From a virus, in the IMG/VR virus record IMGVR_UViG_3300010401_000002, positions 1 through 64,000 of that record: 64,000 nt of DNA; one strand, given 5' to 3'. A model generated the notes under the pieces. The model saw only the letters and a program-made list of their open reading frames with translations, made no database searches and had not been told where the DNA came from. Position numbers and translations under genes: made by a program. This document shows, piece after piece, positions 5,787 to 34,207 of this stretch; the first letter of the stretch is position 1, and every line of letters begins with the position of its first letter.

Positions 5787-6815
5787 ATGGCAAAAAACAC
5801 ATTATCATTAACAGTACCCGAATTTAGAATGTCGGACAGCCCAACATATCTTGATTTATGGACAATGCACAAAGACAACGGTAAAGAAATATACCGATAC
5901 ATAGACAACTTTGGAGAGTACCACGAAGGAACAGACAAAGGGGTTTTTAAAACTATTTCAATTGCAAGATTACAGCCCTACGTGCTGAATTTTGACAGTA
6001 ACAACAAAAAGGATGTGACCTTTGCAAAGTTTGTAATGTCAATCCCAAGAGTAAGAGATGCAGACGGGATTACCCGTAAAAAAGTTGGAAGCATTTCAAC
6101 AGCAATGCCAATTATGGGCAGGCTTACACTTGACAGGGCAACAGAAAATTGCCATGTTATACAAACAAGAAGTCAGGTAACAAGCCATTTCCTTCCGCTA
6201 TCGTTGAAGGATAAGGTTATGGTTGCATTAAAATACGGACAAAACATTGAAGGGTTATCGCACACAAGAATCATAGAACTGATGTGTGACCCCGGCTACG
6301 ATTTAGTATTTCCACCAAAGAGCAGGGAGAATGATGGCATCGTAGAAAAACCTATCATGGTTGCAAGAGGTATATTTTGGCAGGGCGCAAACGCTGTTGA
6401 GTACATCAGGATTATGAAAGCAGGACTTAAAACTTTTGAAAAGGAAATTACCATTCAAAAAGGAATTATTTCAGGGGATATTGAATACAAAGCATCAACA
6501 GGCTATTCATTTGGTGGCCAATATGTAGGAAACGACCATTTGGCATTAAACAAAAGTTTTGCCGACCATCCTGAATTATTTATGCTATTGCAGAATCAGG
6601 TTGCCAATAAGAATTTTCAGAACGAAGATGATTTAAAGGATGTGGATGCAGTTGGGTTTGAGGAAATAAAGCCTACGGTAGCAGAGAAGACTGAACCAAT
6701 ACAAGAAGCAAAAGTGCCTGAATTTAATTTATCAAATAATAGTAACGATACGGGGTTTGAAGAAATTATGACACCAAAGTCAAAAAGTAACAAGGCAAAA
6801 GAAACAGTAGTTTAA
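5787..6815 (+). CDS. virion-module protein of unknown function
   Basis: 342-aa ORF inside the structural block. Confidence 0.6.
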   Translation: MAKNTLSLTVPEFRMSDSPTYLDLWTMHKDNGKEIYRYIDNFGEYHEGTDKGVFKTISIARLQPYVLNFDSNNKKDVTFAKFVMSIPRVRDADGITRKKVGSISTAMPIMGRLTLDRATENCHVIQTRSQVTSHFLPLSLKDKVMVALKYGQNIEGLSHTRIIELMCDPGYDLVFPPKSRENDGIVEKPIMVARGIFWQGANAVEYIRIMKAGLKTFEKEITIQKGIISGDIEYKASTGYSFGGQYVGNDHLALNKSFADHPELFMLLQNQVANKNFQNEDDLKDVDAVGFEEIKPTVAEKTEPIQEAKVPEFNLSNNSNDTGFEEIMTPKSKSNKAKETVV

Positions 6816-20870: not shown

Positions 20871-23800
20871 ATGGCAGAAGTATTAGATGCACCTGTACAA
20901 GAAGCACCTCAAACCGATAAGTTGGGGCAACTATATTCTGCATTAAAATCAGACCCTACATATACCAATGTTTTGCCGGACGAAAAAGCGTTTCGTGAAA
21001 CAATGAACAATCCCGAAAAAGCATCTGCATTGCACGATGTTTTGTTGCAGGATGAGACTTATAAAAGCGTAGTGCCAAAAGATTTCGCTGATTTTGCAGG
21101 AACGTTGGAGTTGGGGAAGAAGGAGCAGCCCGCTACACCGCAAGAGCCGCAACAACAACCTCTAATTCAAAAAATAAACTCCCCCAAAATAGGTGTAGAA
21201 AAAAATCCATTTCTAAAGCCGTCCGATAATAACGGTATGGCAGCAGACATGAAGCAAATGACGGCTACAGGAAATCCAATGCCTGAAATCAAAAATGCTT
21301 TACAAGGAGCAATTATAAATCATAGTGCAGCAGGATTAAAAGATTTGGGAGTGGAATTACCCGACTTGAATCCGAAAGATATAAACCCCGAAAAGCAAGG
21401 ATTTGAGAAATCATATTCAGACAAATTAGTAAAATCATTCACCGATTCGCAGCAGTTAAAAGATGAAATATTAGACAGCCCGAATTATCAGCAAAAGATT
21501 GCTAATGAGGTGTCAAAGAAATATTCAGTACCGCAACAAGATGTACTGAATTATATTTCTAAAGTAAACGATACCAAAAAAGACATTCGCTCAAACTTAG
21601 CCGACATAGCACTTAATCCACAAAACGATAAGGCTTATGGTGAATTGGGGAATAACTATTACGGTATAGGTGAATATGACAACGCTGAAAAGGCTTACAT
21701 GGCTGCATTGAGCGTTGACCCTAATAGCGAAGGTGCAAAAAATGGATTAGGCAGCGTTGCATTACAGAAAAAAGATTATCCAACAGCTGTGCAAATGTTT
21801 AGAGAATTGGCATCGGTCAATCCAAATACAGATAACATTTCGAAACTTGCAACAGCCGTATATGGCACAGGGGACTTTGCTAAAGCGCATGAATTAGCCG
21901 ATGCTGCGGTTAATGCAGGCGGTGATATGCCAGATGCTTATGCACTAAAGATAAGGGCTGTAACAAATGCAGTATTAGGCGATAACAAGCAGTCAATAGC
22001 GGACACAAAAGCAAGTGCTGAAATTGAAGGAATGAATGAGCAGCAAGGCGGTGGATATAAAGATGAAAATGGCGTTCCAATTAATGAACATCAATTTACT
22101 CCAGATGAAATAAAGCAAAACAACTACGCAAGAGCATTAGAACAATTTGTTGATGTAGCACACGCTGTAATTGAAGGCGGATTTAATTTAATTCCTGAAA
22201 CTATTGCCGCTAAAGCAATCATTCAAATCGGAACTGAATTATCGCACTACAACGACATTAAGGGTGACATGGCCGCGAAAGGATTTAATGAACGGCTTTC
22301 CGAAGATGTTGCGCGTGATGTTCGCATTGGTTTTGCAGCAGCAACGGTATTTAGCCCCGGTATCTTAAAATTCGCCCAACAAATGCAGGTGGCGGATATG
22401 GTATTGCCAAGTCAAGTGTTAGCAGGAGTAATGCAGCCTATTTCATCTTTAACCAACGAAGGCGCAAGTAACGCTGCAAAGAATTGGGCACAGGTTGGAG
22501 ATGTAATTGCATCGCTATTAATATTTCATGGTGCAAATGAATTAGGTAGTAAGGGTTATAATCGCGCTATTGAATTGGGTGAAAAGATTAAGGGCAACAT
22601 CGCTTTGACTAAGCAAGATGTTGCTGATATTGCAGATGGATTTAACGGAATTACACCCGCTACGGTATTTGCTATTGACAAGAATATTGCGGAGAATGGG
22701 GGGATTAATATAGATAAGAAGGCGGTGGATAAGTCTTTGATAAGCAATGACCAATTAGAACCAGAAAGCAAACAGGCCACAATACCGCCTGCCGACCAAA
22801 AAGAGCTATCTGATTTTGCAAAAGAAAAAGCGAGAATTAATGCGGAATACGAAAAAGATTGGGATGGCTTATCTGACGAAGAAGTTAAAAAGCATCAAGA
22901 CGACAATGAGGCAGTAATTGAAAAACGAAATGAGATTTTCGACAAATATGCTACGGACGCTGAAAAAAAACAACTTGCCAAATTAGGCAAGCAAACTATA
23001 ATTGAAAAATTAAAGAAACGAAAAGCAGATGCCTATTTCAGAAAAGATAACTATATAGAAGATGTTGTTGATAGAATCGTAAAAGAAAATGTTGGCGAAG
23101 ATATTGGTGCAGAGGAATCAAAGCCAGAAAACACTATTGAAAATAAGGTTGATGATGCAGTTGAAGCACGCATAGAAAGAAGATTAAAAAATAGAAATCT
23201 TACCGAGGCTAAAGGAAGCACGTTTTATGAGGACACAAATCTTAAAAACGCAAAAGTTGGAGATGAAATTCACTTTAGCCAACGCGAGAACGGGGAATGG
23301 AAAGATTATAAAACAAAGGTAAAGAGTATAGTTGATGGCAAGATTATATTTGAAAACGGCAAAACAGAAGATGATGTTTCGTCTTACATGAATATAACAG
23401 CAGAGGACGCATGGTTTGCTAAAAATCATCCGGAATTAACGCTTGATAAATCCTCGCAGTCCGAAAGCAAAGTTGAACCCGCCACCCAAGAACCCATACC
23501 CGAAACAGCATCAGCCGAACCCGAAAAGAAAAGTCTTGCAGGGGTTAAGCAAGAGGGTGAGGGTAAGGCAATGAATAGTGATTTAGAGAACAGGGTTTTT
23601 GAACACGATGGGGATATTAAATCTGAAATAAAAGCCATTGATAAAGCGCAGCATGAAAGGGGAAACGTATATTATTTAGATTCCACTACACTAAAAAATG
23701 CGCCTAAAGAAACACTTGATGAAATAAAGGCTGCTTATAAACCAGTAATTGATAAAATTAAATCAGAACACGGGTCAGATGAAATAAGTTTATATCGCTC

Positions 23801-26800
23801 ACAAGAAACATTTCCATCTGGCCTAATTCATAATGGAGAGTTTTTATCATTTACAACAAGGCCATCATTCGCTAAATATTGGAATAAAGAAAAAATGTAT
23901 AGAGATTTTCCTCTATGGTCATTTATTGCGGAAGTTAAAGTTCCCTTTGATGATATTGTGCTTCCCAAAACAAATTTAGGGCAATACGAGTTTGTCGTTG
24001 AGAACAAAGGCAAGACGAAAGAATATTTTGAAAAGCAGATTGAAATAAAAAAACAAGAGTTAGCGGCTGTTGGGTTAAATCAGAAATCAGATTCAGGGCA
24101 TTTAGAGTTAGCGATTAAAGAAGGGCGTTTTCAGAAGGCTATTTCAGAAGGTAAAATGAAACAAAGTGACGCTATCGAATTGATAGAAGGCGCAGGTTTA
24201 GAAGTTCCCGAAGATATTAAACCTGCCGCTAACAAAGAATCAGCGCAGGTGGCCGAAGAAACACCGCTAAAGAGTGACGTTACTGAACCCGTAAGTTCAA
24301 GTAGCACTTCGGAGAAACCCACCCCAGATGAATCCCGCCAATTTGCAATAGACTTTGTAAATCACGATTTGGTTGAAGTGCAAAAAGCACCAACTAAAAC
24401 TAAAGGCGAAAATAACCGTCCAAGCGGCACAAATACAGCAGCGCGATTAGATTTAGGCATGAGTAACGAAGAAAAGATTAGTGCTATAAAACAAATCAAA
24501 TCGGGTAAATACGATGGAGTTGCGGCAAAAAAGTTGCTGGATAAACTTATTGATATGCACCAGAGGGATGATTTTGCATTTATTCAGGGTACAGGTGGTA
24601 ATACTGAAATGGTGCAGGACAGACCTACAAGACAGAATCTACATGAAGCAATTGAGATTGCGAAACTTACGGATAGCGAATATGATAAGCAGGCAGAATT
24701 AGATAATAAAATTGCAGACCACATTGCCGAACATGGGATTACAACAGTTGAAGATGTTACGGCATTAGAAGGTTTTCCATTAAGCCATGAAGATGCTGAA
24801 TTAATTAAAGAATATTTAAAATCAAAAACAGATGGAACAGACAAAGAAAGCACCAACACAGAATCAGTTGAAAGTAGCAGCAAAAGCAAAGATACTTCTG
24901 CAAAAAGCAAAGAAGTGGAAGATGACCCAAACAGGCGAAAAGCCGAAGCAGATTATGAATCAGAATTAGCCGACAAGCAAAAAGCGGTTGATGATGCCAA
25001 ATCGGATTACGATAAGGCACTAAAGAAAATAAATAAGAGTGGTAACGTGTTGTTTGAAAATGTTATGGGGGTTGAGGCTGATGTACAGCACAATCCAGAA
25101 GCAGCAATAAAACCGTTTAAAGAAAAACTTGACAAAGCGAAAGGTCTATTATCTGAATTTGAAAATAATAAAGATAAGTATATAGATGAACGTTATAAGA
25201 ATCAACAGGATTTATTTAATCAAAAACAATTAAAAGAAACGGAGGCCACAAATGCCATTCAAGAGCAAAGCACAACAAAGGTATCTGGAAGCGAACCACC
25301 CAAAGGGAGTGAATCTAAAGGAGTGGGAGAAAGCAACAAACTTCAAGAAGTTGCCGGAGAAGGTGAAGCCGGGAAAGAAAAAGTAACCCCACCAAAGCCC
25401 AAACTCAAATTCAAGCGCAACACCGAAAAGATTAGCAACCTCGATGATGAAATAAAATCGCTTATCACAAAGTCAAGAGGCGAAACTAACACCTTAGTAA
25501 ACTTTGGTGATGCAGTAAAAGTGGTTGCAAAGCTAATTGAGCGCGGCATCTATAAGGCAGAAGATATTGCAAAGTATCTAATTGAACGCGGTTACAATGA
25601 CGTTGTGCCCCATATAAAAGATGCACTAAAGCACATTAAAGAAAACTTTGAGTTAGACCCCGAAGTTAAAACAGCATTGAATAATGATGCTTTACAACAA
25701 GGTCAGACAGGAGTACGTCACGCAGATGTTGATGTAGATGCTGAATTAATGGGAATGAACCCTGTTGAGAAAATGCAGGCTATACCACGTATTGAATCAG
25801 AACAGTCGGCAAGAAAGATTTATGAAAGTCAAAACATGGCCGCAAAGGTTATTGATTTGAACGAAAAGCCGCGACCAATTAATAATGACGAACAAGGCGC
25901 ATTGCAATTATACATTGCAGAACTAAAGAGAAAATCTGCGGCAATATTTGACCAATGGCAGCAGGCAAAACTTGCGGATAATACCGAACTTGCAGATGAA
26001 CTGAAAATACAGTTAGATGATATTCGTGACGGACAACTTACCCCTGCATGGCAGGCATTAAAAAACACCCGTAGCCAAGCCGCAAGAACATTAGGTAATT
26101 GGGAACGTGCAGTAGGCGGTGAAATGCAGTTTGAAGATTTGCGCATGGATTATATGCGGGCTAAGAACGTTACAGAAGTGCCGCCAGAAATTGAGGCGCA
26201 ACTCAAAAAGGCAGCAGATGAATATGCTGAACTTGAAAAGAAATATAATGATGCTTTAGCCGAAGACCAAGCAAAGGCAGCGAAGATTGCAGCACAGGAA
26301 AAGTTACTTGCCGAAAAGCGTGAACAGGAACGCGAATATGTAAAGCAAAAAATAAAGTCACGTCACGTTGAGAAAGCGCAACAGGTAAAAGAAATTGACG
26401 AGCGCATTGATAAACTCAAAGAACGTGCAAGGGTTGTACTGAAAAAATCATTAGGCCAGATGCACGATTTAGGCGGTGCATTAAAAACTTCATTGGAGTT
26501 TGCAGATGTTGTAAAAGATATTGTGAACGAGCATATCAAAAAAGGATTGATTGAGGGTAAGGTTAAGTTTGAAGATATAATTGACAAAGCGCACCAAGAC
26601 CTGCATGAAATATTTGAGGATATAACCACCCGCGATATTCACGAAATTTATTCTGATTATGGTGTAGTAAAGAAACCGCGTGTAGATGATTTGGCAAAAG
26701 CAAAGCGTGAAATCAAGGCAGAGGCTTTTTACGCATCAGCAACAGCAGAAGCCAAAGAAGGAACGCCACCATTTAAAAGAGTAAACCCCGGCAAAGAATC

Positions 26801-29294
26801 ACCCAACGTTCGTGCGGCAAGGCAGGAAATGGAAGAAGCGATGAAGAATAGCGGCATCGAATGGGACAAACGACCACTTGCCGACAGGAGAAAATCTGCA
26901 TTGGATAAGACTAAGCAAACGTTACAAAATCAGATTAACGATTTAACTAAGGCGGTTGAAGACGATAAGATTATTCGCAGAGAAAGAAATAATGTTACGC
27001 TTGATGAAGCCGCAGACAATTTGGTTAAACTACGTGACGAAGCAAAAGAAATCTACAAGGAACATTTTGGCGATGAACTGAAAGCGATTGATGATGCACG
27101 TAAAATTAAAACCGTACAGCAGGCATTAGATAAACTTAATAAGCGTATTGAGAAAGGTGACTTTACAGATAAGGTTACAGAAAAGACAACCAACGCAGAT
27201 TTGATTGCTATACGTGAACAGTTAAAAGATGCACATAAAAAGTTTGCTGAACTACGTGAGATTGCCGACCCCGAATACAACAATCGTAAATACAATGAAC
27301 GATTAGAAAACGCCTATAACAAACTTGCAAAGAAATATGCAGAGCGTGACGAGAATCAGCAATATGCCAATAAAGCAAAAACCACGCAGGTTATAAGCGA
27401 TAAAACATTTGCAGCATGGAAAGCAAAAGAGGCGGCAAAACGAGCATTTGAGCGAAATAAATTAAGGTGGGAACGCGATAACCAAACGCGGCCAATGAAG
27501 ATTGCTACAAGGGTATTGAGGTATATTCGGCAAGGCGCAATTTCCCGCCCAAGTGCAATATTAAAGTTAGGTGCATTTGCCTTACAAGAAGTTGCTTTTA
27601 AACCGTTAATTGACAGAGGTATTGCAAGAGGCATAACCAAAACAATATTTCCAAAATTAGCGAAATCGGTTTGGGAAGGTCAGCATATACCTATTTCAGA
27701 AGAAGTAAAAACCATGAAAGCAACATGGGATAAATTTGGTGAAGAAGCAGTAAAGATTTGGAAAACAGGTGAAGGCAGCATTGATGTTGCAGGCAAGAAA
27801 GTTCACTTAGAACCATCGCTTATTGAAACGTTTGGTATAATACACACGATAGAAAAGTCTTTGATTAAAAATACCACATTTGGATTATCATTTCAAACAA
27901 GACTTGAAATGGCAAGACGCAATGGCGAACCTGTTGATAATGAAGCCTATCAGTTTGCTATATGGAAGGATGCCTTAAAAGATGCAAACCGTTCAATATT
28001 ATTAGGTGATAATTATGCAATGAATATGTATAAGCGGGCTTTTCAGATTACAGGAAAAGAAAACCCTACTGAATACGCTGCAAAATTCTTAGCCAATTTC
28101 TTAATGCCTGTTGTAAAGGTTGGAACTAATTTTACACTACAATCTTATGAAAGAAGTTTTGGAACATATACAGGTACAGCGAAATACATTATTCATAAAG
28201 CCCTTGCAGAAACAGGACAAACGGCATTAGAGAAAATGACACCCGCACAGCGCGAAAGAACCTATCGTATGATTAATAACGGTATGATGGGCACTGCATT
28301 GGGCTTAATCGGTTGGTACGGCTATAAAAACATTGGCGGTTATTATATACCTAACCAAAAGAAAAAGGATAGTGATGTAAAAGAAGGTGATATTAAATTA
28401 ACCGATAGCATGACTATCCCACACCTGCTACTTCATAATCCACGTCTTGCACCTTTACTTATCGGGGCAACAGCGCATAAGATTTTGGATTATCAATTAA
28501 AGAAGGGTAAAATAAAAGATGCTGATTATAAAGATGTTCTTAGCGGTTTGTATGCTGCAAGTTTAGGTATATACGAAGAAAACCCTTTTGCGGTAAGCGG
28601 GGAACATCTATCAAAACTTACTGATATGAGCAATATCGGAACCAATGCCACTGATTTATTAGTTAAGCCTTTTATACCGGGAGTGATTCAGGAACTTGCC
28701 GTACAGCATGACAATTATATTAACGGCAAAGGTACATGGGCAAATCTGAAAACAGGTAATTTAATGGAACGTAAAGCACATTCGCCTACAGAAGATTTAG
28801 AACTTGCAATACCTTATTTAAGAGAAAATGTAACGGCAGGGAGTTCTTATCCTATTAGTGATACCGCAAAGAAAATGTTTGAAGATAATGATGTGCCATT
28901 ACCTACCCGTTTCAAACCCACCAAAGACCCCGAAACAAACGAGCCGTCCGCAACAATTCAAGGTGTGCATATACCTATTAATGAGGAGCAGGCTAAAGCG
29001 GTGGATAAGGAGATGGAGCAGATTATAACGAAAGAGGTTGAGGCAAGGACGAAAGGCGCAGGTAAATTTCCCGAAATAAATTCATCACATAAAGAGCATG
29101 AAGTAAAGAAGGCTATGCTGAAAGGATTGTCTGCAAAAACTTTAAAAGATGAAATCGCTGACATAAAGGAACGAGCGAAAGAAGTTGCGCTGGTAAGATT
29201 AGGTTATGCTACCAAAGAAGCAATCAAAGCTGGCATCAAAGAAAATAAGGCAGAAGCGAAAAATAAAGCTGATGAATTAAAGCATAATAAATGA
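20871..29294 (+). CDS. giant ejection/polyvalent protein with TPR repeats and an ADP-ribosyltransferase-like domain
   Basis: 2807 aa; TPRs ~21620-22030; LYR...FLSFTT...QYEFVV ~23790-24000; long coiled coils; hydrophobic C-terminal region. Confidence 0.75.
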   Translation: MAEVLDAPVQEAPQTDKLGQLYSALKSDPTYTNVLPDEKAFRETMNNPEKASALHDVLLQDETYKSVVPKDFADFAGTLELGKKEQPATPQEPQQQPLIQKINSPKIGVEKNPFLKPSDNNGMAADMKQMTATGNPMPEIKNALQGAIINHSAAGLKDLGVELPDLNPKDINPEKQGFEKSYSDKLVKSFTDSQQLKDEILDSPNYQQKIANEVSKKYSVPQQDVLNYISKVNDTKKDIRSNLADIALNPQNDKAYGELGNNYYGIGEYDNAEKAYMAALSVDPNSEGAKNGLGSVALQKKDYPTAVQMFRELASVNPNTDNISKLATAVYGTGDFAKAHELADAAVNAGGDMPDAYALKIRAVTNAVLGDNKQSIADTKASAEIEGMNEQQGGGYKDENGVPINEHQFTPDEIKQNNYARALEQFVDVAHAVIEGGFNLIPETIAAKAIIQIGTELSHYNDIKGDMAAKGFNERLSEDVARDVRIGFAAATVFSPGILKFAQQMQVADMVLPSQVLAGVMQPISSLTNEGASNAAKNWAQVGDVIASLLIFHGANELGSKGYNRAIELGEKIKGNIALTKQDVADIADGFNGITPATVFAIDKNIAENGGINIDKKAVDKSLISNDQLEPESKQATIPPADQKELSDFAKEKARINAEYEKDWDGLSDEEVKKHQDDNEAVIEKRNEIFDKYATDAEKKQLAKLGKQTIIEKLKKRKADAYFRKDNYIEDVVDRIVKENVGEDIGAEESKPENTIENKVDDAVEARIERRLKNRNLTEAKGSTFYEDTNLKNAKVGDEIHFSQRENGEWKDYKTKVKSIVDGKIIFENGKTEDDVSSYMNITAEDAWFAKNHPELTLDKSSQSESKVEPATQEPIPETASAEPEKKSLAGVKQEGEGKAMNSDLENRVFEHDGDIKSEIKAIDKAQHERGNVYYLDSTTLKNAPKETLDEIKAAYKPVIDKIKSEHGSDEISLYRSQETFPSGLIHNGEFLSFTTRPSFAKYWNKEKMYRDFPLWSFIAEVKVPFDDIVLPKTNLGQYEFVVENKGKTKEYFEKQIEIKKQELAAVGLNQKSDSGHLELAIKEGRFQKAISEGKMKQSDAIELIEGAGLEVPEDIKPAANKESAQVAEETPLKSDVTEPVSSSSTSEKPTPDESRQFAIDFVNHDLVEVQKAPTKTKGENNRPSGTNTAARLDLGMSNEEKISAIKQIKSGKYDGVAAKKLLDKLIDMHQRDDFAFIQGTGGNTEMVQDRPTRQNLHEAIEIAKLTDSEYDKQAELDNKIADHIAEHGITTVEDVTALEGFPLSHEDAELIKEYLKSKTDGTDKESTNTESVESSSKSKDTSAKSKEVEDDPNRRKAEADYESELADKQKAVDDAKSDYDKALKKINKSGNVLFENVMGVEADVQHNPEAAIKPFKEKLDKAKGLLSEFENNKDKYIDERYKNQQDLFNQKQLKETEATNAIQEQSTTKVSGSEPPKGSESKGVGESNKLQEVAGEGEAGKEKVTPPKPKLKFKRNTEKISNLDDEIKSLITKSRGETNTLVNFGDAVKVVAKLIERGIYKAEDIAKYLIERGYNDVVPHIKDALKHIKENFELDPEVKTALNNDALQQGQTGVRHADVDVDAELMGMNPVEKMQAIPRIESEQSARKIYESQNMAAKVIDLNEKPRPINNDEQGALQLYIAELKRKSAAIFDQWQQAKLADNTELADELKIQLDDIRDGQLTPAWQALKNTRSQAARTLGNWERAVGGEMQFEDLRMDYMRAKNVTEVPPEIEAQLKKAADEYAELEKKYNDALAEDQAKAAKIAAQEKLLAEKREQEREYVKQKIKSRHVEKAQQVKEIDERIDKLKERARVVLKKSLGQMHDLGGALKTSLEFADVVKDIVNEHIKKGLIEGKVKFEDIIDKAHQDLHEIFEDITTRDIHEIYSDYGVVKKPRVDDLAKAKREIKAEAFYASATAEAKEGTPPFKRVNPGKESPNVRAARQEMEEAMKNSGIEWDKRPLADRRKSALDKTKQTLQNQINDLTKAVEDDKIIRRERNNVTLDEAADNLVKLRDEAKEIYKEHFGDELKAIDDARKIKTVQQALDKLNKRIEKGDFTDKVTEKTTNADLIAIREQLKDAHKKFAELREIADPEYNNRKYNERLENAYNKLAKKYAERDENQQYANKAKTTQVISDKTFAAWKAKEAAKRAFERNKLRWERDNQTRPMKIATRVLRYIRQGAISRPSAILKLGAFALQEVAFKPLIDRGIARGITKTIFPKLAKSVWEGQHIPISEEVKTMKATWDKFGEEAVKIWKTGEGSIDVAGKKVHLEPSLIETFGIIHTIEKSLIKNTTFGLSFQTRLEMARRNGEPVDNEAYQFAIWKDALKDANRSILLGDNYAMNMYKRAFQITGKENPTEYAAKFLANFLMPVVKVGTNFTLQSYERSFGTYTGTAKYIIHKALAETGQTALEKMTPAQRERTYRMINNGMMGTALGLIGWYGYKNIGGYYIPNQKKKDSDVKEGDIKLTDSMTIPHLLLHNPRLAPLLIGATAHKILDYQLKKGKIKDADYKDVLSGLYAASLGIYEENPFAVSGEHLSKLTDMSNIGTNATDLLVKPFIPGVIQELAVQHDNYINGKGTWANLKTGNLMERKAHSPTEDLELAIPYLRENVTAGSSYPISDTAKKMFEDNDVPLPTRFKPTKDPETNEPSATIQGVHIPINEEQAKAVDKEMEQIITKEVEARTKGAGKFPEINSSHKEHEVKKAMLKGLSAKTLKDEIADIKERAKEVALVRLGYATKEAIKAGIKENKAEAKNKADELKHNK
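24832..24969 (+). CDS. candidate nested +1-frame basic peptide (45 aa)
   Basis: MEQTKKAPTQNQLKVAAKAKILLQKAKKWKMTQTGEKPKQIMNQN after an A-rich tract. Confidence 0.35.
   Translation: MEQTKKAPTQNQLKVAAKAKILLQKAKKWKMTQTGEKPKQIMNQN
25252..25386 (+). CDS. nested +1-frame small basic protein (MPFKSKAQ type, 44 aa)
   Basis: MPFKSKAQQRYLEANHPKGVNLKEWEKATNFKKLPEKVKPGKKK; GGAGG at 25241-45. Confidence 0.65.
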   Translation: MPFKSKAQQRYLEANHPKGVNLKEWEKATNFKKLPEKVKPGKKK

Positions 29295-31801: not shown

Positions 31802-34207
31802 ATGGACGCACAGAATTACGCCACCGCAACGGTACGCACAGCACTCCCATACGCCACAGACGTAAAAAATTTAGAATTTATCGAATGTAAGCGTCAACCG
31901 CTATACGTTACCGAAGCGTATAAGTTTGCTAAAAACTGTTACGGGCAAAGTCAATATTTTTTAAACGTTGCCCGCAATCAGGTAAAAGACTGCTACAATA
32001 TTCGCGTTGATGTAAATACTATTGAATCGTCTGTAACGGAAGGTATTAACAGGGGCATTGTCAGAACCCGCATACACGAAGAAGTAAAAGAGAACAGGGA
32101 TTTTTATTATGGATTGCAGAATGACAACCTCATGGCGTGGAGTGCGAACAATCTTTCCATCAGCGTACCGGGTCAAGACTTAAAGAAGTACATTAATCAC
32201 ATGGACGGTGTTCAAACCGCAATGATTAAGCCTATTAAAAAAGGAATAAACACCACCATACTTGACAGTAGTTCCATTGAAAAAAAGAAAGGATTCTTAA
32301 CCCTATGCCACTTGATTATTGACAACAGGGATTTGTTTAAAGAAATGGAGGCAAAAGGTGTTGTTATACGAAACCCGTTTGCTGAAATAATTCCCAATAT
32401 AACCGATATTGAAATTGAAGATATAAAAGATATTGAGGATGCTTGGCGTGATGAATACGAAATTGAATCTGAAATATTCCTTAACAACCTGTATCAGTTT
32501 TATGATATGGAGGAATGTTTTTTAAGGCAGTCAAAAACAAATCTAATTGAGGGTGTTTCAACAATCATTTTGGAAGATGATGGATTGTATTACAAGCCTG
32601 TACAGGTAAATGCTATACAGGCAATGATTGATATTGATTGCAACGACCAATATGGCCGCGACATGATGCGGTGGGGATATGTTGACTATTTGACTTACGA
32701 AGATGTGTGTGCCTTAGTTCCTGATATGGACAAGGATATGAAAGCCGATATTTATAACCTATGTTATACCAACGACCAGCAAACAACAGATTGCTTAAAC
32801 TATCTTCAAGCAGGCTTTGACAATATAAAATGGATAAACCCTGATAATAAACGAATAGCTGTTGTGAAAGGATGGTTTATTGCGCCACGTAATAAGCGTT
32901 ATAAGGAGCGTGAAACAAAATTTGGTGATAGTTACATTGATATAATTGAAAACGAAAGAAAATACACCAACAGGTTTTTAGATGTTCCGCAACCCGATGG
33001 TGTATTAGGCGCTGATATACGCGGTGATTTTGACGAGTGGGATATTCATAAGTATATGATGATACTTAATAAGTATGTGTTTAATTATGGTTATGAAAGA
33101 ATTGTTTATCGCACTACACAGGAAAAATGGAAGCCACAGCCTAATGCAATTCAATTTATACACGACCGTTCACAGGCAATGTTTCGTTCACCTGCTGGAC
33201 GTTTAAAATGGAATCAATTAGAAAAAGACAGGCTAAAGAAAAAGATTGTTCAACTTACTGCAAAAGATAAGGGTCGCAATCTTATGGTTTATGCTGATGA
33301 ACTCACAGATGGATTAAAAGGTCTGATTGAAGATTTTGATGCACAAGGTATATCATTGAAGTTATCACCCAAAGTTGACCATAATCCGCAGGGGAATAAC
33401 AATCAGATTAATACTGTTTCGGAGGTGGTGGATTTATCGCTCTCAAACACTGTGTTGTCTTACTTAGAGCTTATCCGTTCGGAGAAACAGGAGATGAATG
33501 AAATTGCAGGGATTTCAGAGATTCAGCTTGGTCAGGATTCACAGACTATGGGCAAAGGCGTGAGGGAGGCAAGAGTAGCGGCAAGTCAGCAAGGATTAGT
33601 GTCGCAGTATGAATCGTTTGGGAAGTTCTGTACTATTACATTGCAGAGGTTTTTTGATTATAATAAGTTATGCCTTCCTCAAATCAAAAATGAGGAGAAT
33701 CTTTTCATAAGCAAAAGAGGAGAGAATTTATTTGAGTTTACGAAGGAGTTAAGTACGGCACAAATCACCTTGCATATTGATAGTGTGACTGAAATTGACC
33801 CCAAAGAAAAGGATGGTATAATCATGGCTGCGGGCGCAATGGCGCAGCAATCACAGTACTTACAGGACGTAGGTGTATCTCCTATGTTACCATTTCGGCT
33901 AATGCGGGCAACTAACACCGACATTGCGCTTGCGGAAGCAGAACGTTCCATTAGAAAATCACAAAAGAAATTTGCTGCAACACAAGCTGCTAAATTTAAG
34001 TCTGAACAAGATAATGCTGCACAAGCTAATCAAGTGCCTATACTTTTAGAAAAAATGAAACAGGACAATGAAAATTGGCGCACCACCCAAACGAACGAGG
34101 TCAAAGCGATGACAGCGAAAATGGATAAGACTATGGAGTTTTTACAATTGCTTATGCAGCAACCGGAACCGGGGGATGGACAGCCTACGCAATCTCAACC
34201 CGCGTAG
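31802..34207 (+). CDS. portal protein
   Basis: 801 aa after terL; VVDLSLS...EIAGISEIQLGQ motif and Q-rich coiled C-terminus as in crAss-like portals. Confidence 0.82.
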   Translation: MDAQNYATATVRTALPYATDVKNLEFIECKRQPLYVTEAYKFAKNCYGQSQYFLNVARNQVKDCYNIRVDVNTIESSVTEGINRGIVRTRIHEEVKENRDFYYGLQNDNLMAWSANNLSISVPGQDLKKYINHMDGVQTAMIKPIKKGINTTILDSSSIEKKKGFLTLCHLIIDNRDLFKEMEAKGVVIRNPFAEIIPNITDIEIEDIKDIEDAWRDEYEIESEIFLNNLYQFYDMEECFLRQSKTNLIEGVSTIILEDDGLYYKPVQVNAIQAMIDIDCNDQYGRDMMRWGYVDYLTYEDVCALVPDMDKDMKADIYNLCYTNDQQTTDCLNYLQAGFDNIKWINPDNKRIAVVKGWFIAPRNKRYKERETKFGDSYIDIIENERKYTNRFLDVPQPDGVLGADIRGDFDEWDIHKYMMILNKYVFNYGYERIVYRTTQEKWKPQPNAIQFIHDRSQAMFRSPAGRLKWNQLEKDRLKKKIVQLTAKDKGRNLMVYADELTDGLKGLIEDFDAQGISLKLSPKVDHNPQGNNNQINTVSEVVDLSLSNTVLSYLELIRSEKQEMNEIAGISEIQLGQDSQTMGKGVREARVAASQQGLVSQYESFGKFCTITLQRFFDYNKLCLPQIKNEENLFISKRGENLFEFTKELSTAQITLHIDSVTEIDPKEKDGIIMAAGAMAQQSQYLQDVGVSPMLPFRLMRATNTDIALAEAERSIRKSQKKFAATQAAKFKSEQDNAAQANQVPILLEKMKQDNENWRTTQTNEVKAMTAKMDKTMEFLQLLMQQPEPGDGQPTQSQPA

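Follow-up and report, generated by a model that had tools for sequence, protein, structure and literature searches.

A probable nested gene in the +1 frame of a giant phage gene and the recurrent dual coding of its small-protein family

Does a 44-codon reading frame that starts deep inside a giant phage gene encode a protein of its own and, if so, which of the two overlapping readings does selection maintain? The question is raised by a window of 64,000 nucleotides (positions 1 to 64,000 of IMG/VR virus record IMGVR_UViG_3300010401_000002), taken from a virus record of 79,364 bp that is complete and has terminal repeats. An earlier note, made from the letters alone, had described the frame as a hidden gene overprinted on a 'giant ejection gene', and its sequence details (ATG, stop, peptide, GGAGG and frame) were all found to be correct on re-check (Table 1).

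The nested frame and the giant gene around it

Relative to the giant ORF, the nested ORF is in the +1 frame (25252-20871 = 4381 = 1 mod 3), and its product, P0001, reads MPFKSKAQQRYLEANHPKGVNLKEWEKATNFKKLPEKVKPGKKK. The host frame over the nested gene reads NAIQEQSTTKVSGSEPPKGSESKGVGES..., from residue 1461, and the overlap forms a Gly/Ser/Glu-rich linker (aa 1461-1506) of the host protein; the GGAGG bases upstream of the nested ATG are read in the host frame as part of T-E-A. By its length the nested ORF would be unremarkable, because other out-of-frame ORFs of 45-62 aa are present elsewhere in the giant gene, and it is homology that lifts it above chance.

P0001 combines an N-terminal MPFKSKAQQR, two predicted helices, an FKKLPEKVK motif and a Lys-rich tail. 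Its residues 1-10 agree fully with the invariant columns of the family described below, the C-terminal (F)K.LPEKV motif and basic tail are present as FKKLPEKVKPGKKK, and L34 and P35 are almost invariant across the MPFKSKAQ family. A model built with AlphaFold (AF2) and the family alignment contains two short helices, at residues 6-15 and 22-28, with a mean pLDDT of 83.5.

Table 1. Positions of features in the window and of selected loci (L numbers) with related genes
Feature	Position	Strand	Remarks
Host giant gene, 2807 aa	window 20871..29294	+	TPR repeats at aa 254-360; otherwise no known family
GGAGG Shine-Dalgarno-like core	window 25241..25245	+	6 nt ahead of nested ATG
Dual-coded stretch	window 25251..25388	+	host codons N1461-T1506, stop-free
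Nested gene, 44 aa + stop (P0001)	window 25252..25386	+	ATG at 25252, TAA at 25384-25386
Portal gene	window 31802..34207	+	phrog_6547, E 5.7e-18 in the window
Divergent free copy, Synechococcus phage S-CBS2 (NC_015463)	L082:6001-6111		MPFKSPEQRKYLYAAKP...
Divergent free copy, Prochlorococcus phage P-RSP2 (HQ332139)	L083 about 6001-6123		MPFVSEKQKKYLYANKP...
Bacterial subfamily, example	L176:6001-6192		
Bacterial subfamily, example	L210:6001-6261		
N-terminal-module fusion	L104:10001-11674		
N-terminal-module fusion	L089:169-1827		
N-terminal-module fusion	L028:10001-11086		
Giant host, 3170 aa	L017:7753-17265		
Giant host, 1190 aa	L025:7402-10974		
Neighbouring ORF, 1025 aa	L025:10877-13954		

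The label 'giant ejection gene' goes further than the evidence for the host gene, which consists of its TPR repeats and its location upstream of the portal gene. The portal family of the window, phrog_6547, is also that of the portal found beside nested copies of a second group of hosts, the scaffold-position group described below (E 7.4e-148 in L022). A search of IMG/VR for relatives of the giant gene found none, and the one relative of the giant protein in the 5.8-billion-protein set is P0033, a distant one whose alignment flanks the overlap, covering aa 168-334 (the TPR end of the protein) and aa 1498-1606. The latter segment, directly past the overlap, aligns to P0033 aa 1765-1875, and the signature of the nested gene, looked for in P0033 at the matching site, is absent. 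Since P0033 aligns on both sides of the overlap and lacks the nested signature, the giant is to be regarded as a single gene in which the nested copy was not present ancestrally.

P0033 itself (2530 aa) carries TPR repeats together with precomputed Pfam matches to PF13872, PF00176 (SNF2) and PF18763, which suggests a multidomain, 'polyvalent' nature for the giant proteins; in the window's own giant protein, TPR is the sole recognised domain. Among 10 large window proteins that were searched, almost none has any PHROG match, and blastn of the nested region against phages gave no match. The GC content of the genome (0.39, with A/T-rich upstream regions), its SD-poor starts and its phrog_6547 portal suggest a Bacteroidota host for this phage, and two related nested loci derive from Bacteroidota bins.

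A large family of small proteins and its layouts

Against 5.8 billion proteins, a phmmer search with the peptide yielded 30 matches of 41-77 aa, each with MPFKSKAQQR at its start and FKKLPEKVK ahead of a basic tail; P0003 is the best of them, at 81% identity (E 2e-10). The peptide has no self-match in that search and the giant protein, in its own search, does match itself, so annotation had not called the nested gene, in line with the earlier claim that it is invisible to standard annotation. Scans identified at least 236 relatives in IMG/VR and 283 in metagenomes, and a profile search of 1.84 billion representatives gave 4330 clusters at E<=1e-3, 730 of them at E<=1e-10, with the conserved module standing nearly always at residue 1, in proteins of 45-980 aa.

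In PHROGs v4 the module is shared with phrog_1375, an entry for which no function is given and nesting is not mentioned: of 68 aligned family members, 51 match this entry across the MPFKSKAQ...LPEKV module, as do in-frame fused forms. In hmmscan, P0001 had no match to PHROGs at E<=10 and so did not reach phrog_1375, to which it is tied through phmmer and through a family profile built from the relatives. That profile, searched against the 79,364-bp genome, finds a single family copy, the nested one (E 7.5e-23). A Pfam search with P0001 gave no match, and tblastn of the peptide against GenBank phages gave chance matches only (E about 6). The earlier note had named a widespread family of small phage proteins and had staked its reading on homologues of the peptide being found; the phmmer, IMG/VR, PHROG and profile matches establish that such a family exists and that P0001 has homologues in it.

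Family members occur as free genes, as abutting neighbours of other genes, directly 3' of a giant gene, as in-frame N-terminal fusions and embedded in the +1 frame of a longer gene. For example, the small gene directly follows a giant gene in L003 and L060, and the giants of these two loci have domains in common with the giant of L079, where the copy is internal. In Synechococcus phage S-CBS2, the ATG of the small gene overlaps the upstream stop. The free copies of S-CBS2 and of Prochlorococcus phage P-RSP2, both cultured cyanophages, are divergent and lie, in both phages, in unannotated gaps that separate annotated genes.

There is also a bacterial chromosomal subfamily (61 loci, L165-L242) in which MPFKSKAQRRKFAELLVKGEIS.ETFEEWNRETG..LPERVKPK is followed by a long tail of Lys/Arg/Thr/Ala. 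It is carried on Mb-sized contigs of metagenome-binned genomes from Gemmatimonadota, Acidobacteriota, Chloroflexota, Verrucomicrobiota, Gammaproteobacteria and other phyla, and a conserved gene neighbourhood, sought across this subfamily, was not found.

The 40-residue module is, in addition, found precisely at the N-terminus of many longer proteins, which reach 980 aa (for example P0039, P0053, P0065 and P0096; Table 1). It occupies this position in 18 of the 112 distinct copies, and 77 of the best 149 representatives are proteins of more than 80 aa. The C-terminal parts fused to it form several groups that are unrelated to one another; Gly/Ala-rich stretches occur in some, and none is annotated. 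Comparison of these extensions and of the neighbours of fused forms with Pfam, PHROG and PDB produced no annotation except one DUF5661.

Nested copies, start signals and selection by frame

Every copy in the fetched loci was located and the other frames were checked for openness across each, using a motif search that demanded a start codon, so that decayed nested copies would escape it. The 112 distinct peptides comprise 94 small ones (80 aa or less) and the 18 in-frame N-terminal modules of longer proteins. Twenty-four of the 94 small copies lie wholly within ORFs of at least 300 codons, always in the +1 frame, with the host codons beginning one base ahead of the small ATG in all 24; none of the 94 is nested in such an ORF in the other same-strand frame. 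The dual-coding arrangement proposed for the window is therefore recurrent, and in the same relative frame. Across the conserved start the host reads [D/N]-A-[I/V]-Q-x-[Q/E]-[S/G], so the (N/D)AIQ.QS motif that the earlier note had placed in giant virion proteins exists as the host reading over nested starts.

Hosts are of two main kinds. One consists of giant genes: besides the window (2807 aa), these are L079 (>4377), L017 (3170), L194 (>2611), L018 (2426), L213 (>2360), L054 (2006), L168 (1746 codons), L093 (1655) and L025 (1190). The other consists of acidic genes of 390-440 aa that occupy the scaffold position (L021-L024, L035, L062-L078, L111-L163), with a terminase large subunit and a portal to one side of them and a capsid-like structural gene to the other. 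Hosts, of whichever kind, are mostly unrelated to one another, so the arrangement is not tied to one cargo gene as had been suggested. Within the giant genes, the 3170-aa host of L017 corresponds to two adjoining genes of L025 (1190 and 1025 aa) joined together, an example of gene fusion.

Open-frame cases at high GC (HNH and TerL hosts, L241 and L242) were left out of these counts because long open frames arise there by chance. In such GC-rich phages, the small ORF stands at the 5' end of a frame, again +1, that runs into an HNH endonuclease (L009, L011, L042-L045) or a terminase large subunit (L036, L037); this frame may be either an N-terminal extension or a chance frame with a GTGA or ATGA start-stop overlap.

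A start signal of its own was found for the nested gene, in the form of its ATG with GGAGG 6 nt upstream and of an enrichment of such cores among giant-nested copies. Of the 10 giant-nested copies, 6 are preceded at a distance of 5-17 nt by an SD-like core, defined as GGAG, GAGG or AGGA (GGAGG in the window and L213, AGGAG in L168, L093 and L017, GGAG in L194), compared with 8.5% of other ATG triplets in the same ORFs (binomial P about 6e-5). The remaining 4 of 10 are without one, as is the AT-rich scaffold-position group. In the window, an SD-like core precedes 2 of 33 + strand genes and the GGAGG of the nested gene stands out; the genome rarely uses SD sequences, and this one may not act as in E. 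coli. Scans for promoters, terminators and RNA structure near the nested start gave no signal, and the RNA around it is no more structured than shuffled controls.

Selection was measured over nested copies in giant and scaffold-position hosts, the window's included; close relatives of the window phage were not found. When differences are sorted by codon position of the small frame, they peak at position 3 both in the scaffold-position overlap (0.211/0.229/0.297) and in the giant-gene overlap (0.375/0.353/0.521), and in the host flanks they peak at position 3 of the host codons (0.333/0.223/0.486). Nei-Gojobori counting gave pN/pS of 0.43-0.57 for the small frame, 0.9-1.3 for the host frame in the overlap and 0.46-0.70 for the host flanks. 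By the position-3 peak and the lower pN/pS of the small frame, conservation tracks +1 and not the main frame, the outcome that the earlier note needed. In addition, the Ser5 codon alternates between AGC and TCN, which changes the host reading from Q-E to Q-V, and the residue remains Ser; this codon switching around a constant Ser shows that selection acts on the protein. By these patterns, the embedded frame is under purifying selection across the nested copies.

The host frame bears a different kind of mark. In loci with GC of 0.52 or less, to which stop and codon counts were restricted, the -1 frame of free copies contains a mean of 5.06 stops and is open in 0 of 51, and all 25 nested copies have 0 stops. 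The Phe3 codon is TTC in 25 of 25 nested copies and is TTT in 31 and TTC in 20 free copies; nested copies use TTC because TTT-AAR would make TAA in the host frame. Given the window peptide and the window's codon usage, the probability of an open host frame is 0.0024. The substitution and stop counts together indicate that both frames are maintained, the small protein for its sequence and the host frame only in being held open, and the coding is thus truly dual.

This pattern also bears on which partner came first. The word 'overprinted' implies a new gene inside an older one, and here the order is reversed: of the two partners, the small gene is the older and has the wider distribution, and it is the linker of the host that is unconstrained. 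Hosts that share a domain carry the nested copy on differing sides of it (L093 compared with the window, L079 compared with L003). In a tree of 130 peptides (48 columns), nesting needs 7-10 state changes, and no well-supported branch excludes a single origin.

A codon-level account of this layout can be proposed. Ribosomes would start at the nested ATG within the giant-gene mRNA, aided by GGAGG, and would produce a small basic protein that has two helices and ends in a Lys-rich tail, and the host protein reads a disordered acidic linker from the small gene's -1 frame. AAR Lys codons read one base earlier become GAA, CAA or AAA, giving a Glu/Gln/Gly-rich, stop-free sequence, on the condition that T is avoided at third positions before A or G. 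Such a Glu-rich reading suits the disordered acidic linkers that scaffold-like and giant virion proteins tolerate, and the complementarity of the Lys-rich and Glu-rich frames explains why the same relative frame is always used.

The joint reading, that the nested 44-codon ORF is a genuine, separately translated and older gene and that the host linker is its -1 frame, is held with good confidence from sequence comparison. It has to be weighed against the improbable alternative that a small gene, formerly free, came to lie within the giant ORF through engulfment or recombination and is now a silent, untranslated relic kept only via the open linker of its host. Such a history would accommodate P0033, which is without the nested gene at the matching site, so that the gene is dispensable for that protein family. 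However, a host frame with a pN/pS of about 1 in the overlap cannot be preserving the residues of the small protein, yet the family-invariant residues, the ATG and the stop are all intact; the enrichment of SD-like cores upstream of nested copies and the status of the nested copy as the sole one in a complete genome also argue against a relic.

Somewhat less probable again is a frameshift product, for which translation starts at the nested ATG and slips by -1 near the Lys-rich end (G-AAA-AAG-TAA), fusing the module to the C-terminal 1300 aa of the giant protein. The existence of many longer proteins with the module at their N-terminus (18/112 copies; 77 of the best 149 representatives) is what this would predict, and the window tail, AAG AAA AAG TAA, is similar to an A-AAA-AAG slippery site, but the heptamer is imperfect, with G in place of the first A, the ends of other nested copies have neither a slippery motif nor a conserved site, and the short protein works by itself, as is shown by the free copies of 41-60 aa. 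A chance ORF in a low-complexity linker, for which the further out-of-frame ORFs of the giant gene might be adduced, has next to no probability left: it is refuted by the homology results (E 2e-10 among 5.8 billion proteins and E 7.5e-23 to the family profile), and stops have been purged from the host frame. An older, separately translated gene is thus the reading carried forward here.

Possible function and comparison with known systems

Phage copies lie in the head or packaging module, beside portal, terminase or scaffold-position genes. Given a small, very basic, helical protein whose N-terminus is invariant and whose gene has this location, a tentative guess is that it might be a late head- or packaging-module protein whose basic tail binds nucleic acid or an acidic virion partner. 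It is also possible that the invariant N-terminal module anchors or targets C-terminal cargo that varies from protein to protein. A PDB profile search returned designed repeat proteins without a matched stretch, which were taken as spurious, and no solved relative; Foldseek against viral models matched uncharacterised small phage proteins only.

In the ESM Atlas, the nearest named neighbour is DUF3008 (PF11450), at 0.87 and 0.82-0.84 for a phage and a bacterial member. Weak matches to DUF3008 occur in 2 of 68 members (E 0.016, under the Pfam gathering cut-off). Membership was rejected, as P0001 has no match and none was over the cut-off in 5 bacterial genomes carrying a member, so DUF3008 is at best a distant relative of the family.

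A broader proposal, offered as speculation, is that the Lys-rich gene could be a portable dual-coding cassette, started internally and repeatedly lodged in unrelated virion-module genes (scaffold-position, giant multidomain and possibly terminase/HNH), with its invariant N-terminal module acting as a general anchoring or targeting domain that brings a basic tail or other cargo to capsid or nucleic acid.

If the favoured reading of an older, separately translated gene is right, the nested gene would be a conserved hidden gene and one case of recurrent dual coding, in a setting where embedded genes such as Rz1 are already known. A very large family hides in long genes of many uncultured phages, unannotated even when free in two cultured cyanophages, and systematically missed by gene callers that forbid nested genes. 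The usual story of overprinting would be reversed, with the embedded gene as the ancient constrained partner and the host reading as the unconstrained one. The Lys-rich/Glu-rich codon rule would predict further hidden genes in the acidic linkers of scaffold and giant virion proteins, and the family would offer a clean natural system for analysing dual-coding constraints and internal initiation.

To our knowledge, embedded phage genes are known as a few textbook cases only. No description of the recurrent dual-coding arrangement was found in the literature searched (on the motif, DUF3008, phrog_1375 and embedded virion genes). In the spanin genes of phage lambda and its relatives, Rz1, which encodes a lipoprotein of the lysis system, is wholly embedded in the +1 frame of Rz, and phages differ in whether the layout is embedded, overlapped or separate. 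The MPFKSKAQ family resembles this system in that a larger phage gene wholly encloses a small one in its +1 frame and in that layouts vary. The proteins, however, are unrelated, and the products of Rz and Rz1 are partners encoded within one host family, whereas the hosts here are many and mostly unrelated. Phage phiX174 likewise has same-strand nested genes, and its J protein, which is small and very basic, accompanies DNA into the capsid; by analogy, this is the kind of role guessed for the nested protein. There is no sequence relation between the two systems, and phiX174 is under genome-size pressure, unlike the 79-kb dsDNA phage in which this nested gene is found.
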